The position numbers and the translations under genes were made by a program. Below the pieces are notes generated by a model. It made no database searches. It was not told the origin of the DNA and was given only the letters and a program-made list of their open reading frames with translations. Source: an uncultured Candidatus Saccharibacteria bacterium (lineage in GTDB: Bacteria; Patescibacteriota; Minisyncoccia; Minisyncoccales; GWA2-38-27). Taken from it: DNA of 64,000 bases. Below are positions 35,302 through 46,797 of the stretch, in pieces (position 1 is the stretch's first letter; the number at the start of each line of letters is the position of its first letter). The DNA lies in contig CAYMZK010000002.1 in NCBI GenBank assembly GCA_964394985.1, forward strand, positions 22,349 to 86,348, in the 5' to 3' direction.

Positions 35302-35382
35302 ATTTGTCATTAATTAATCCTAGCAAAATTATATCTTAGAAACAAGAAAAAATGTGCTTAACCAGGTTAAGCACATTTTATA
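35302..35382. repeat. 81-bp repeat carrying a palindromic hairpin, -10-like box, SD and ATG-ACA-AAT-AA (partner 41396-41476)
   Basis: Both copies share the same sequence, TATTTGTCATTAATTAATCCTAGCAAAATTATATCTTAGAAACAAGAAAAAATGTGCTTAACCAGGTTAAGCACATTTTATA. Confidence 0.9.
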
Positions 35383-35664: not shown

Positions 35665-36414
35665 TTATTTTGAGCATAAAATTACCATTCTTTTTGATTT
35701 TTTATTATATTTTTTGCCTTCTGTCGTATCTCCATAAACTTTAATAACATCATTAAAGCCTGCATTTTTTAGCATGTCCTTCATTTTATCCAACGAATAA
35801 AGTTTAGTTATGTATTGAGCGGAGTAATTCCCTCCTTTTTTATCTGTAATAGTTAAATTTACTATTTCTTGGCTATTTTTTTTATCAAAAACTCTTTTTT
35901 CTAAAACAGAGTAGTTTTTTGTTTTGTAGCAACGCTTTGAAAATGAATTTTTGAGTGCTAAGCTCTTATTTCTTATATCAAGCAAAAACTTTCCACCTTT
36001 TTTTAATGACCTTCTCGCCTCTTTTAAAGCTTTAAGGTTTTCTTCTTCTTTCTCAAAATAGCCAAAAGAAGTAAATATATTGATTACCGCATCAAATTGA
36101 TTTTTAAATGGAACTTTTCTCATGTCTCCTTCAATAATTCTTACATCTAAATTATTTTTCTTTGCCTCTTTTCTTAAAATATTAAGAGCTTTTCTGTTTA
36201 AATCAAAAGCTGTCATTTTATATCCAGCCGCAGCCAACGAAATAGTATGCCGCCCGTGCCCCGAACATAAATCCAAAATTTTAGATCCTTTTGGCAAATT
36301 TAAAACACGCTCAATAAAAGCGTTTTCTTTTTTAATATAATCTTTTTTAAATCTCGGATTTTCTTGATAAAGGTCAAGATACCATTTATCAAAAAACTCT
36401 TTATGCCATTTCAT
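35665..36414 (-). CDS. Class I SAM-dependent methyltransferase
   Basis: ILDLCSGHGRHTISLA...FDLN. The start was moved to MKWHKEFF. A hairpin terminator lies upstream at about 36436-36468. Confidence 0.8.
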   Translation of the reverse strand: MKWHKEFFDKWYLDLYQENPRFKKDYIKKENAFIERVLNLPKGSKILDLCSGHGRHTISLAAAGYKMTAFDLNRKALNILRKEAKKNNLDVRIIEGDMRKVPFKNQFDAVINIFTSFGYFEKEEENLKALKEARRSLKKGGKFLLDIRNKSLALKNSFSKRCYKTKNYSVLEKRVFDKKNSQEIVNLTITDKKGGNYSAQYITKLYSLDKMKDMLKNAGFNDVIKVYGDTTEGKKYNKKSKRMVILCSK

Positions 36415-36482
36415 AATAATTAAAATAAATGTGGCGCCTTGTTTTTTTGTAACAGGACGCCACGCTTTAAAAGAACAAAGAA

Positions 36483-37010
36483 CTAATCGTCCCACCAAAC
36501 TAAGTCGGTTTCTACTCCCAACATCGAATTCACCTCCTTTCTTATTATCTTAATACCTGAAACAACCTTACTAAAAGAACCTTTTGCCCTGTACAGCTCA
36601 TGAGTTCTGCTATCCCAACCATCGAGAGAAACTTTAATAATAATCTTTTCCGAAGAAAGGATTCTTAATTGTTTCTCTGTCATTTTGTTAAATAAAAGCC
36701 CGTTTGTTTGAAGACGCAAAGTATAACCGAACAACAAAGCTAATTCAATTATTTCAAAGATAGCTGAGCAAAGAAAAATCTCTCCACCAGTAAGTTGTAA
36801 ATATAGCTCTCTAACATCGGATTGCTTCTCCTTGAAAAAATCTAACACTCTTTTAACGTCATCTATCCTGATTTTATCTTGACCGAATTTTCTAGAGTCC
36901 CTAAAACAATATTTACAATAAGTATTACACCTATTTGTAAGATTAATTGTTAAACTGCTAAAAAACCTTTCAACCGGTAGGGGCTTTACTTTAATGCTTA
37001 ACCGTTCCAT
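36483..37010 (-). pseudogene. Truncated radical SAM enzyme (N-terminal half only)
   Basis: CNTYCKYC and GGEIFL are present. The ORF ends after 175 aa with no auxiliary-cluster region. Confidence 0.65.
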
Positions 37011-37089: not shown

Positions 37090-37266
37090 TAAATTTGTCA
37101 AATTTTTCACGGCTGAGTTCAGTTAACTAACGCATATTTCGGGCGAATATATGAAGATTCAATATATGAAGGTTGAACCTTCATATATAAAAAATGTGCT
37201 TAACCCGGTTAAGCACATTCTGGAATAACTTTTGTCAGCGACTAATCACTCCTGGCCCCATTTCCT
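37090..37266. repeat. Composite junction repeat, modules 1+2+3 (copy b)
   Basis: Aligns with copies at 38148-38324 and 46535-46797. Confidence 0.9.
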
Positions 37267-38147: not shown

Positions 38148-38324
38148 AACCTTATCAAATTTTTGTGTAGCTAAGTTCAGTTAACTAACGCATATTTCGG
38201 GCAAATATATGAAGATTCTATATATGAAGGTTGAACCTTCATACATGAAAAATGTGCTTAACCCGGTTAAGCACATTCTGGAATAACTTTTGTCAGCAAT
38301 TAATCGCTCTTGGCCCCTTTCCCC
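38148..38324. repeat. Composite junction repeat, modules 1+2+3 (copy c)
   Basis: Same architecture as copy b. It begins right after the stop of the HExxH gene. Confidence 0.9.
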
Positions 38325-38338
38325 AAATTCATTTCGGG

Positions 38339-39055
38339 CTATAGCGTTGCCTCCATTTCTTTTGTCATTTTATCTACCCATTCTTCGAGATTTGGATTTT
38401 CTTTCCATATTTTTTTACCACGTGCAATTAATTTTTTGTGATCTGGATAGCCAAGATTATCAATCTTACCATGTAGTTTAATAAAATCATCCGTATCCTG
38501 AATTACCGCATTAAAAACCTCGGCTAAGTCCCAGAATAATCCTTCTTCGGTGCTTAAATTTTTAAATTTATCTAAGAATTTCCTTTGAACGAAATCGTAG
38601 AAAATAAAGTGAAGCATTTCGTGAAAAATAGTAAAAAGTTGCATATTACGATTATCGTAAATAAAAATCTGGAACCCTCCCCAATCTAAAAAACGAGGAC
38701 AAAAATCAAAAATTGAGAAAACACCAGTAAATTCTTTTTTTGGCCAAGGATAATGATTAAAAATCTTATCAACTGTTTTAAAGAAATCTTCTTGGGTTTG
38801 GTCAAGATATTCCTGTGTTTTTTGATTAAGTTTTTTTAATTCAAGAGCGTGAGATTTATAATATTCTTTAATATATTTATTTAAAAAGCTCTTTGGGTTA
38901 TTAACTGATTCCATTTCTGAAAGATCTGTGTGATAAGGTAAGGCTCTTTCTTTCCAAAAATCACAACCACCAAATTCCGAGTTAGAATAAAATTCCCAAG
39001 CCAAATCTTGGTCTAATTTTTTATCAAATTTCAATTTTATAACTGGATTTAACAT
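38339..39055 (-). CDS. HExxH-motif protein (putative metallopeptidase), cassette 1
   Basis: 238 aa with HEMLH and GYPDHKKL. Paralog of 43493-44212. Confidence 0.7.
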   Translation of the reverse strand: MLNPVIKLKFDKKLDQDLAWEFYSNSEFGGCDFWKERALPYHTDLSEMESVNNPKSFLNKYIKEYYKSHALELKKLNQKTQEYLDQTQEDFFKTVDKIFNHYPWPKKEFTGVFSIFDFCPRFLDWGGFQIFIYDNRNMQLFTIFHEMLHFIFYDFVQRKFLDKFKNLSTEEGLFWDLAEVFNAVIQDTDDFIKLHGKIDNLGYPDHKKLIARGKKIWKENPNLEEWVDKMTKEMEATL

Positions 39056-39144
39056 ATTATTTTATATGAAAAAGCTCACTAGTATTATATCCTTTTTATA
39101 GAATAAATAATAGTGAGCTGGAGTTATTTTCAACATTTTTGCAC

Positions 39145-40542
39145 CTACTGAGCTTGTGTTTGCTTGAGAAGATCCCAAACAAGCCACTCTAGGGTCATTT
39201 TTGCGTGAACACAAAATCGTTCATCAAGGTCCCAAATAGACCCATTTTGTATTTCAGCCTGAAATGGACATCCACCGCCGCATATACCAAGAGCAGGACA
39301 ATTCTGACATTGAGGCATATTTAAAGGAGACCGCATGCTCCATTCACGAAAAGTTTCATCCTTGCTAATGTCGAAGAATCCATCATCAACATTAGTTGGA
39401 AAATACTTTCTTTCTGTGACAAAGCCATGACAGATACCGACATCACCATTGGGAGCAATAACGATCTGGTTTCCTCCAGTTGCCCCGCAATCAAACGGCC
39501 AAACATTCCTTTCGATAAAAGCATTGGCTTTACGCATAATACGATCTTCGTAAACACCTTTTTCTCTAAAGATTTGGAAGGCATCGATTATGAAACGAGC
39601 TGCCTTTTCGTTATAACCGTCAAGTATTTTTTCATCTCCACTAATCATGAGATTTAGACCCAAATTTGTTATAGCACATTCATCTAAAAGCACTCTTATA
39701 GTATTATCAAAATCAGAAATATTAACCTCTGAAAGAGTACACGATGCACCAATGTCCATTCCAAGATCTCTACAAATCCTAAACCCTCTTTTGATATCCT
39801 GATATACCGGTTCTCCATTTGTATAAGCACGATGAGAGTTTGTCGCCGATTCATTGCCGTCAATAGATATTGAAACTTGAACATTGTTACCCCTAAGAAC
39901 TTCGGCGATATGATCGGTTAAAAGAGTACCATTCGTAACTAAATTAAGTGTAGTTTTCTTGGGGAGCTTTTCTGCTTTTCTATATTCTCTTATTTTAACT
40001 AGCAATGCTTCAAAAACTGGCCAGTTCATAAGAAGCTCTCCCCCGTAAAAAACTATTGTCTTCTCTGCCTCAAATTGCTCGGAGTCTTTCTGAATTGCAC
40101 GACAAAAGAAATCAAGACCTTTAAGGGCAGTTTCTTTTGTCATATGATCTTCCTTATACCCCGAACTAATTTGGTTTTTTATGAAACAGTAGCTACATCG
40201 AAAGTTACATTTTTCCGTGAGAAGAAAATAAACCAAATGAGGATAAGGGTTTCCAAGAAGACCAAGAAAATATCTTATTACCTGATCGTCTTCCTCGGGA
40301 TTTTGAACTAAAATTTTCACATCTCTTAATACATCAATTATAGTTAAGAGATTTTCTTTTTTTTCAGAATCGGCAATAATCAAATCTTCCGGACAAGCAC
40401 CTCCTTTGAATTCGCTGATCATCGGAAGCAAATCTGTAGGGACATAAACCGGCATCATTCGAAGAGAATGATAGCACGCACTCAGAGACTGTCTTGTAAA
40501 AAAATGAGCAAATCTTGAAAGAAAAAATTTGTTCTTTTCCAT
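39145..40542 (-). CDS. Radical SAM/SPASM-domain peptide-maturase-like enzyme, cassette 1
   Basis: 465 aa with CNFRCSYC and C-terminal CQNCPALGICGGGCPF. A ~100-aa N-terminal extension begins ...LSRFAHFF. Confidence 0.85.
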   Translation of the reverse strand: MEKNKFFLSRFAHFFTRQSLSACYHSLRMMPVYVPTDLLPMISEFKGGACPEDLIIADSEKKENLLTIIDVLRDVKILVQNPEEDDQVIRYFLGLLGNPYPHLVYFLLTEKCNFRCSYCFIKNQISSGYKEDHMTKETALKGLDFFCRAIQKDSEQFEAEKTIVFYGGELLMNWPVFEALLVKIREYRKAEKLPKKTTLNLVTNGTLLTDHIAEVLRGNNVQVSISIDGNESATNSHRAYTNGEPVYQDIKRGFRICRDLGMDIGASCTLSEVNISDFDNTIRVLLDECAITNLGLNLMISGDEKILDGYNEKAARFIIDAFQIFREKGVYEDRIMRKANAFIERNVWPFDCGATGGNQIVIAPNGDVGICHGFVTERKYFPTNVDDGFFDISKDETFREWSMRSPLNMPQCQNCPALGICGGGCPFQAEIQNGSIWDLDERFCVHAKMTLEWLVWDLLKQTQAQ

Positions 40543-40582
40543 GGCAAGAACTCCTTTGCATTAGCATTTATTGTTTCCATGT

Positions 40583-40613
40583 AGGGGGAGGAAGATTTTT
40601 TCTTCCTCCCCCT
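40583..40613 (-). promoter_or_regulatory. Intercistronic hairpin between precursor and rSAM gene (cassette 1)
   Basis: AGGGGGAGGAAG/CTTCCTCCCCCT, a 12-bp stem with no U-tract. Confidence 0.6.
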
Positions 40614-40622
40614 TGACGCTCC

Positions 40623-40767
40623 TTACCAAGGAGATTTCGTGGACTTGGAATTGTACCTGCACGCACATTTGCACGCACATGTACCACACTTGGATGCATG
40701 GGCGATCTTCGCAGAATTTCCAAGAATCTTCGTAGCATCCTTAACTGTGGGTACTATAAGCCTTCAT
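40623..40767 (-). pseudogene. Cys-rich precursor-like peptide, cassette 1, with frame broken after codon 2 as assembled
   Basis: SD AGGAGA then ATG AAG G|CT TAT AGT... hits TAA after 8 codons. Removing one G gives MKLIVPTVKDATKILGNSAKIAHASKCGTCACKCACRYNSKSTKSPW (47 aa), which is homologous to the cassette 2 peptide. Confidence 0.6.
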
Positions 40768-40893
40768 AATTTTCTCCTTTCTTGCCTGCAACTATCTATT
40801 GTTTTCTCTACCGAAAGTTTACGTAAACTTCCTTTTGCAATATTGAAAAACAATAAACAGAAACAGGGCTTGTATGATTGTCAAAGGTCCATA

Positions 40894-40925
40894 ATTATAC
40901 TACTGAACAACTTGATTGCTGTCAA
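40894..40925 (-). promoter_or_regulatory. Sigma70-like promoter of cassette 1
   Basis: Minus strand reads TTGACA (40920-40925), a 17-nt spacer, then TAGTAT overlapping a perfect TATAAT. Confidence 0.5.
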
Positions 40926-40942
40926 GCGCTAGCGGGCTGAAT

Positions 40943-41404
40943 TCAACCTTCAAGTGCAACACTTAATTCTTTACTTAACCAAAAGAATTTTCCATCTTCT
41001 TTCCATTTAATAATAGCTTTTGGCAAAATAACGGGATAAACCTTTTCATTTAAAAATTTATCCTTAGACAGAAAGATAAAATCAATCTCATCTTCTTTGC
41101 TTTTGTCTTCAATATCATCAAACTCAACATAAAAGAAAAGATTAATATCGTGATGTTTCTCTCCATCTTCTTTAGTAAAAATATCTTCCATTCCTCCAAT
41201 TAAAGATACTTTTCTTATAGATATAATAAGCTCCTCATTTAATTCTCGAATCACAGCATCTTTTGCAGTTTCACCAAATTCAACATGACCACCAGCTAAA
41301 AAATAATAATCCTTACATTCATCTTTGTGTTTACAAACTAAAAACTTTCCGTCTTTTTCAACAACAGCCCTCACTCTTATCTCAAATTTTTTATTATTTG
41401 TCAT
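40943..41404 (-). CDS. NUDIX hydrolase
   Basis: Nudix box GGHVEFGETAKDAVIRELNEELII. Confidence 0.85.
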   Translation of the reverse strand: MTNNKKFEIRVRAVVEKDGKFLVCKHKDECKDYYFLAGGHVEFGETAKDAVIRELNEELIISIRKVSLIGGMEDIFTKEDGEKHHDINLFFYVEFDDIEDKSKEDEIDFIFLSKDKFLNEKVYPVILPKAIIKWKEDGKFFWLSKELSVALEG

Positions 41405-41476
41405 TAATTAATCCTAGCAAAATTATATCTTAGAAACAAGAAAAAATGTGCTTAACCAGGTTAAGCACATTTTATA
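41396..41476. repeat. 81-bp repeat (partner of 35302-35382) covering the 5' region and first codons of the NUDIX gene
   Basis: Identical sequence read in both places. Confidence 0.9.
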
Positions 41477-42290: not shown

Positions 42291-42370
42291 AAAAAGGTGT
42301 GCTTAACCCGATTAAGCACATTCTGGAATAACTTTTGTCAGCAATTAATCGCTCCTGGCCCCTTTCCCCT
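42291..42370. repeat. Composite junction repeat, modules 2+3 (copy f)
   Basis: GTGCTTAACCCGATTAAGCAC hairpin plus CTGGAATAACTTTTGTCAGCAATTAATCGCTCCTGGCCCC. Confidence 0.85.
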
Positions 42371-43492: not shown

Positions 43493-44212
43493 CTATTTTT
43501 GGAGGTTCTTATCTTTGTTAATTTTAATAATAGATTTATCTAAAAATTTAGTAAAATCTTTATCGTCTCGCCAGATTTTCCTTAGTTCTTCTCTTAATCT
43601 TTTATGTTGAGGATATCCTTTATCTCCGACTAAAATAATCTTCTTGAATTCGGGTTCGTTCAATAAAAAGGTTAAAGCTTCTTTTAAAGCTTCTATTTGT
43701 TGATTATTAAGTCCTCTTTTTCTCAAATAATTTTTATAATAATACAAAAACTGAAGATGCAATAATTCATGACATATTGTTGTTATTGAAGATGGCAAGC
43801 TGTGCCACATCGATATCATAAACCAATTTTCTTTCTGGTTATAAGGACACATAAAACCTGTCGTTAAAAAACACCTAAAATTATTTCTATAAATAGGTTC
43901 TTCGGTAATATGAGAAAGGATATCAAAAAAATTCTTTTCGACCTTACTCCAAATATTCTCAAGCGTAATTAATTCTTGATTGATTACTAGTTTGCGATAT
44001 TCTTTTTTCGGGTGATTTCTTAAATACCTCTCTACTGTATTCTGAGCTTTTGAAAAATCTGATTTTAAGATCTTGGCCAGTAAATCATCCGGAATATGAA
44101 TAACTTGCTCTCGCCAATTAAGTCCGAGCATATCCTTGTTTTTGCTTTTCGCAATCAAAATCCAACTCCAGGCGTCTTTTTTAATGTTATATTTAAAGGT
44201 AACTTTTGACAT
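43493..44212 (-). CDS. HExxH-motif protein (putative metallopeptidase), cassette 2
   Basis: 239 aa with HELLH and GYPQHKRL. Paralog of 38339-39055. Confidence 0.7.
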   Translation of the reverse strand: MSKVTFKYNIKKDAWSWILIAKSKNKDMLGLNWREQVIHIPDDLLAKILKSDFSKAQNTVERYLRNHPKKEYRKLVINQELITLENIWSKVEKNFFDILSHITEEPIYRNNFRCFLTTGFMCPYNQKENWFMISMWHSLPSSITTICHELLHLQFLYYYKNYLRKRGLNNQQIEALKEALTFLLNEPEFKKIILVGDKGYPQHKRLREELRKIWRDDKDFTKFLDKSIIKINKDKNLQK

Positions 44213-46569: not shown

Positions 46570-46797
46570 GGAATTAACGCATATTTCGGGCGAATATATG
46601 AAGATTCAATATATGAAGGTTGAACCTTCATATATAAAAAATGTGCTTAACCCGGTTAAGCACATTTTAGAATAACTTTTGTCAGCAATTAATCGCTCCT
46701 GACCCCATTTTCTCTGACCCCATTTTCTCAATTAATCGCTCCTGGCCCCATTTTCTCAATTAATCGCTCCTGACCCCATTTCCTGACCCCATTTTCT
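46535..46797. repeat. Composite junction repeat, modules 1+2+3 with tandemly expanded module 3 (copy d)
   Basis: Positions 46686-46797 hold three 26-28-bp units CAATTAATCGCTCCTGRCCCCATTTTCT interleaved with two 15-bp partial units CTGACCCCATTTTCT. Confidence 0.9.

Follow-up and report, generated by a model that had tools for sequence, protein, structure and literature searches.

A frameshifted, probably inactivated precursor gene in a FibroRumin-type RiPP cassette of Patescibacteria

In FibroRumin systems (maturase model TIGR04136, precursor model TIGR04135), a small cysteine-rich precursor is encoded immediately 5' of a radical SAM/SPASM peptide maturase. The leader of the precursor contains two hydrophobic residues and a proline, followed after six to seven positions by a hydrophobic residue and a glycine. 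The precursors of Firmicutes relatives that share this maturase profile pass TIGR04135 at 55.4, 46.8, and 56.7 bits. The ranthipeptide and SCIFF maturases (PapB, NF047865; ScfB, TIGR03974) are likewise radical SAM/SPASM enzymes of short cysteine-rich peptides. Our literature search found no paper on "FibroRumin" or on SRR7048227, the sequencing run discussed below, and the top-ranked article of a search on ranthipeptides and Patescibacteria (PMC11613949) contained nothing specific.

The whole stretch of DNA analysed here (the window), which is 64,000 nucleotides long and has a G+C content of 33%, contains two RiPP cassettes. The maturase of cassette 1 has 465 amino acids (39145–40542, minus strand), is intact, and is preceded by its own Shine-Dalgarno (SD) sequence. 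It matches TIGR04136 over profile positions 1–454 of 458 with a score of 404.4 bits, a borderline value given the cutoff of 400, and the maturase of cassette 2 reaches just 261.1 bits. PapB and ScfB are second-tier matches of the cassette 1 enzyme, the scores of 156.8 and 105.9 bits being far under the respective cutoffs of 340 and 425. As in FibroRumin loci, a small cysteine-rich precursor with the same leader motif is located immediately 5' of the maturase. The precursor itself differs from the FibroRumin model: once its reading frame is repaired, it scores 11.6 bits against the TIGR04135 cutoff of 45, and the precursor of the orthologous locus L002 has no match to this model. A core of its own, KCGTCACKCACRYN...SPW, characterises the Patescibacteria clade, and the source names of the nearest homologues of the maturase also point to Patescibacteria (CPR). 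Judged by the maturase sequence, the locus belongs to the FibroRumin family and is best called a divergent Patescibacteria sub-family.

Organization of cassette 1 and its surroundings

The precursor is the first gene of the cassette and is separated from the maturase by 80 nt; the precursor-first layout is repeated in approximately 37 related loci. The gap between the two genes contains a G+C-rich hairpin with 13 base pairs and no U tract (40583–40613, minus strand), which has a folding energy of −32.3 kcal/mol and a z-score of −5.75. Equivalent hairpins are present between precursor and maturase in L002, L003, L004, L013, and L048, as well as in cassette 2. The hairpin may stabilise the mRNA or act as an attenuator, and could in this way set the ratio of precursor to enzyme. 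The maturase is followed by a conserved gene for a partner protein of 238 amino acids (38339–39055, minus strand), which carries the HExxH-like motif FHEMLHF and has no match among Pfam and NCBIfam families. A gene encoding 234–244 amino acids occupies the position of the partner in L002, L004, L048, and cassette 2. The cassette 2 counterpart (approximately 240 amino acids, 43493–44212, minus strand) has the motif CHELLHL and likewise matches no Pfam or NCBIfam family. The partner may be a leader peptidase or have an accessory role.

A promoter-like site, in which TTGACA and TAGTAT are separated by 17 nt (40897–40925, minus strand; 10 of 12 matches), is placed to serve the precursor/maturase operon, and the homology with the orthologous loci starts at this site. 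A TTGACA...TATAAT block and a 5' UTR of approximately 110 nt are found in L002, L005, and L048; the region kept corresponds to 40785–40925 of the window (minus strand), 2120–2270 of L002, and 1120–1270 of L048. The genes 5' of the cassette differ: the window has a NUDIX gene there, and both L002 and L048 have one for an MFS transporter. The conservation of the 5' UTR despite these different upstream genes indicates that the unit from promoter to partner moves as one module. An Rfam search of the window detected just two tRNAs, and nothing near the locus or its 5' UTR.

The substitution pattern indicates that the maturase is under purifying selection. Relative to the L002 orthologue, dN/dS is 0.047/0.397 (approximately 0.12), and 17 residue changes are specific to the window versus 14 to L002. 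At otherwise invariant columns the window maturase has two private changes, and its relatives have zero to nine. Decay of the maturase was considered, and nothing convincing was found; the number of private changes is in the range of the relatives. One of the two private changes is at residue 170 (40033–40035, minus strand), where the window has a leucine and all 25 aligned relatives have the proline of a GGEP motif (YGGELLMNW versus YGGEPLLNW). This substitution is one observation inside the normal range and is not significant on its own.

The cassette is located in an island rich in repeats. A perfect 23-nt palindrome, TGTGCTTAACCNGGTTAAGCACA, occurs in six copies in the window (35353–35375, 37195–37217, 38253–38275, 41447–41469, 42298–42320, and 46642–46664), with zero copies expected by chance, and is absent from all of the 49 related loci. 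All copies are positioned at 35–47 kb inside two types of intergenic repeat of 77–177 nt. The repeats bound modules that consist of methyltransferases; RiPP cassette 1 and the NUDIX gene; an acyltransferase; and cassette 2 together with a GNAT acetyltransferase. A run of T comes after the palindrome on the gene strand, as in a terminator. The palindromes and repeats might serve as terminators, or they could be scars left by a system of recombination or of mobile modules. The same island contains an ORF of 175 amino acids (36483–37010, minus strand) that corresponds only to the N-terminal half of a different radical SAM/SPASM maturase (best match WgkB-like, 73.5 bits), and the end of which is overlapped by a methyltransferase ORF (35665–36498). 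This ORF looks like a truncated remnant and, if so, would add a second case of RiPP-gene decay to the island.

The shifted reading frame of the precursor

The precursor gene starts with the SD sequence AAAGGAG (40774–40780, minus strand), which is kept in the orthologues and is separated from the ATG by a 6-nt spacer. In the zero frame, the minus strand reads ATG (40767–40765) AAG GCT TAT AGT ACC CAC AGT TAA (40743–40741), so that the product of eight codons and a stop (40741–40767) is MKAYSTHS. The body of the precursor is positioned in the +1 frame (40623–40763, minus strand) and ends with a TAA at 40625–40623. The distance from the ATG to this TAA (40767–40623) is 145 nt, that is, 3 × 48 + 1. 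Translation of the +1 frame from 40763 to 40626 gives RLIVPTVKDATKILGNSAKIAHASKCGTCACKCACRYNSKSTKSPW, which is composed of a leader ending in IVPTVKDATKILGNSAKIAHAS and the core KCGTCACKCACRYNSKSTKSPW. The ORF listing (at least 20 amino acids) and the codons read by hand contain no ATG, GTG, or TTG in this frame, which is closed just on the 5' side by a TGA (40766–40764) overlapping the ATG. Reading from its start codon stops after eight codons, and the window precursor is not translatable as one ORF.

A profile constructed solely from the precursors of other loci and that of cassette 2 was run against all six-frame segments of the window. The +1-frame segment scores 93.7 bits with an E-value of 5.8e-28, and by this measure its homology to the precursors is far above chance. 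The cassette 2 precursor gives the sole other match; just these two known precursors were detected in the window, and the six-frame profile search gave no second, intact precursor of the cassette 1 type. The cassette 2 precursor starts with MKLVVP, ends in a TGA directly 5' of its hairpin, and has the leader pattern ...VP-x7-KILG in common with the cassette 1 precursor. It is a distant paralogue, and its core differs. A sequence-only reading that preceded this analysis had described the SD sequence, the short zero-frame ORF, the 145-nt span, the lack of an ATG, GTG, or TTG in the productive frame, and the homology of the shifted peptide to the cassette 2 precursor. Re-reading of the sequence, the ORF listing, and the profile search bear out these descriptions.

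An ATG-started ORF of 56 amino acids in the third frame (40568–40738, minus strand) overlaps both the precursor body and the hairpin, and gene callers may report it instead of the precursor. It was rejected as a real gene and is considered a by-product of codon composition, since the substitutions in the orthologues follow the precursor frame.

Orthologous precursors and the position of the extra base

Orthologous precursors were obtained by tracing the nearest relatives of the maturase to their contigs, which come from samples other than that of the window. All six (L002, L003, L004, L005, L013, and L048) are in frame from an SD-preceded start, which is ATG in five of them and ATT in L013. 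The closest clade is formed by L002 (ENA), L005 (JGI), and L048 (JGI). The maturases of L002 and L048 share the 90%-identity cluster of the window maturase, that of L002 being 91% identical to it, and L005 is a contig end with the L002 allele of the precursor. The three loci all read AAAGGAGAAAATT ATG AAR (G/A)CT GTA GTR CCC ACR ATY AAG GAT ..., and their precursor is an in-frame peptide of 47 amino acids, MK(A/T)VVPTIKDAAKILG(S/N)SAKIAHASKCGTCACKCACRYNSKSTKSPW. The precursors of L003 and L004, the maturases of which are 75–76% identical to that of the window, are also ATG-started, in frame, and 47 amino acids long. In L013 (maturase identity 77%), the position of the start codon in the in-frame precursor is occupied by ATT (1743–1760: GGAGGTGAGACT ATT ATT AAG ACC GTG GTG CCA). 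The sole in-frame ATG of this locus, a few codons further 5', lacks an SD sequence and overlaps the SD region. The L013 precursor may be initiated at ATT.

The DNA alignment with the six orthologues has a single column that only the window fills, none of the six precursors having a base there. The interval of the extra base is 40755–40759 (minus strand), where the window reads GCTTATAGTA and the orthologues read GC-TGTAGTA, and the base maps to codon 3/4 as GCT[T]ATA. Because codon 3 of the orthologues is GCT or ACT, as in the ATG frame of the window, the extra base is within T-T-A-T-A (40759–40755). The inserted base is probably T 40759 or T 40758, accompanied by a G-to-A change that converted GTA to ATA. 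The sequence-only reading had proposed the removal of one G of AAGG as the sole way to obtain the peptide, and MKLIVP as its start. The first proposal was too narrow, since a plausible leader is regained by removing any single base from 40764 to 40755. The second was based on the distant cassette 2 paralogue; the true orthologues start with MK(A/T)VVP (ATG AAR (G/A)CT GTA GTR CCC) and indicate an additional T or A in codon 3/4 and a repaired peptide that probably starts with MKAIVP. The full-length precursor restored by this repair is MKAIVPTVKDATKILGNSAKIAHASKCGTCACKCACRYNSKSTKSPW. As this case illustrates, orthologues rather than a distant paralogue should be used to place an indel.

The comparison was extended to the sequence 5' of related maturases in GTDB representative genomes, approximately 37 loci. 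Each visible cysteine-rich precursor segment in these loci is one uninterrupted frame; L032 and L033 have no such segment, and the upstream sequences of L023 and L024 are too short. The intact frames of the surveyed loci indicate that the frameshift is unique to the genome of the window. Variation among the precursor sequences falls mainly on third codon positions of the +1 frame; most changes between the window and its orthologues are silent or conservative in that frame, and the window and the closest clade have the same core. The third-position variation and the identical core indicate that the +1 frame was under selection until recently.

Origin and consequences of the frameshift

A Logan contig, independently assembled from the run SRR7048227, is 100% identical to positions 38280–41423 of the window over its full length of 3144 bp, including the extra base, and is unbroken across the frameshift site. 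The ends of this contig fall in two of the intergenic repeats (38148–38324 and 41385–41476). The presence of the same base in the contig of a second assembler makes an assembler error unlikely as its source. The one other record of the proteins of the window locus is an NCBI contig from which the window presumably derives, and the Logan and NCBI assemblies may therefore share one read set. No samples of the strain other than these two records were found, and DNA pattern scans gave just the intact sister allele in JGI metagenomes and nothing in GTDB representative genomes.

An error of sequencing or consensus would confine the extra T or A to the reads or the consensus and leave the gene of the organism intact. 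The intact and conserved state of the rest of the cassette is also consistent with a lesion that is absent in vivo. In addition, the strain is known from one sample, which gives no truly independent confirmation, and the Logan contig probably comes from the same run as the genome. However, the two assemblers agree on the base across an unbroken contig, and the site, GCTTATAG, is not a homopolymer. Furthermore, five pairs of overlapping ORFs from other parts of the window were tested, and none is a gene split by a frameshift; the assembly thus does not look generally indel-prone. We consider an error of this kind unlikely. The extra base is probably a genuine mutation, which would place it in the DNA of the organism and not just in the reads; a minority intact allele may exist alongside the frameshifted one.

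Recoding, either by programmed +1 frameshifting of the ribosome or by spontaneous +1 slippage at a low level on AAG-G or GCU-U, would yield some full-length precursor from the gene in its present form. The retention of the SD sequence, ATG, leader, core, and enzymes is consistent with such recoding, and tRNA-Lys could in principle slip from AAG onto AGG by forming a G:U pair in the middle of the codon. Some CPR (Patescibacteria) lineages are without ribosomal protein bL9, the loss of which increases slippage in E. coli, and such an absence would also favour a shift. However, the need for a shift is found in none of the six orthologues and none of the approximately 37 more distant loci. The hydrophobic-hydrophobic-proline motif of the leader is family-wide and must be kept, and therefore the shift would fall within codons 2–3. 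GCT and TAT, used 26.5 and 28.1 times per 1000 codons, are the commonest choices for their amino acids, so the site has no rare "hungry" codon. The AGU that precedes the in-frame stop is unable to re-pair as GUU, and the sole SD sequence is that of initiation, 9 nt from AAG, as opposed to 3 nt in prfB. No slippery P-site codon beside a stop or rare codon is present in AAG GCU UAU AGU ... AGU UAA. Recoding is accordingly given a very low probability. A prfB-like or Ty-like +1 site was rejected, as the sequence is without a slippery, rare, or stop configuration, and so was transcriptional slippage, as there is no run of approximately seven or more A/T between 40767 and 40741. The narrower idea that ribosomes of the CPR lineage slip +1 at AUG-AAG-G or GCU-U, making small amounts of precursor and rendering the lesion tolerable, is slightly less probable again. 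If true, it would be a lineage-specific, non-conserved recoding event that throttles the production of the peptide.

Direct translation of the +1 frame would require either read-through of TGA under an alternative code or a non-canonical start, such as the ATA at 40757–40755. A TTG-started ORF of 29 codons (40853–40764) is in the productive frame and separated from the precursor body by just the TGA, and the ATT at the start position of L013 suggests that the family may tolerate starts other than ATG. On the other hand, TGA terminates 7 of the 41 long ORFs of the window as well as the cassette 2 precursor, and the long genes are uninterrupted under table 11. The ATA is 16 nt from the SD sequence and is rivalled by a well-placed ATG, and the upstream ORF corresponds to the 5' UTR of the orthologues, in which it is not kept as coding sequence. 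Three forms of this explanation were rejected: a genetic code with TGA as sense (tables 4 and 25), since TGA is used as a stop and long ORFs are intact under table 11; TGA read-through from the upstream ORF, for the same use of TGA; and a productive-frame start at ATA, CTT, or ATT, because of the 16-nt SD spacing and the competition from the ATG, despite the ATT of L013. Direct translation is largely refuted by the stop-codon usage, and its residual probability is minimal. Even taken together, recoding and direct translation are highly improbable.

The frameshifted gene is best explained as a recent lineage-specific inactivation, which would make it an ordinary young pseudogene; we give this reading, which is drawn from sequence comparison, a probability of approximately 0.7. 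The window carries an extra base that is absent in all relatives, and the neighbouring genes are intact. The gene would have encoded the precursor of a FibroRumin-type cysteine-rich RiPP, predicted to be modified by the radical SAM enzyme. An insertion at codon 3/4 would have changed the ancestral ATG AAR GCT GTA GTA CCC to ATG AAG GCT T ATA GTA CCC. Ribosomes initiating at the SD-preceded ATG would stop after MKAYSTHS, and the leader and core, left in a +1 frame with no start codon, would go unmade, so that the frameshifted precursor probably gives rise to no peptide. The maturase and the 238-amino-acid partner, each with its own ribosome-binding site, would stay intact, leaving an enzyme that lacks its own substrate. 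Because the precursor core and the maturase still look selected, the lesion is probably recent. The sequence-only reading had named an assembly error, a recent inactivation, and recoding as options, and had called for a comparison with related genomes. The six orthologues and the approximately 37 distant loci, all intact, favour inactivation, which is the best supported of the three; an assembler error is unlikely, and recoding found no support.

The precursor is not among the gene calls on the related contigs of L002, L003, L004, and L048, and only five clusters match it in a collection of 5.8 billion proteins. The lack of gene calls and the small number of clusters indicate that the Patescibacteria precursor family KCGTCACKCACRYN..SPW is essentially unannotated. 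Among the FibroRumin-like precursors, the surveyed loci show it to be a coherent sub-family of Patescibacteria, one that escapes the curated precursor model. Genome-mining pipelines would score the cluster of the window as an orphan maturase, for which the repaired peptide is the likely substrate. The biological weight of the lesion is small: it adds one case to the frameshifted small genes of uncultivated genomes.

Compared with FibroRumin loci, the cassette is distinguished by the frameshifted copy of its precursor and by the partner of approximately 240 amino acids with an HExxH-like motif that follows the maturase. It resembles the prfB-type +1 frameshift (CUU UGA C with an SD sequence 3 nt upstream) in requiring a +1 shift and in having an early zero-frame stop, but is without a re-pairing slippery codon, a correctly spaced internal SD sequence, or conservation among orthologues. 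With the frameshift pseudogenes of reduced and uncultivated genomes, it shares a single-base indel near the 5' end, an otherwise undegraded ORF, and intact relatives. It is set apart from these only by its victim, a 47-codon RiPP precursor of a kind that gene callers almost never annotate.
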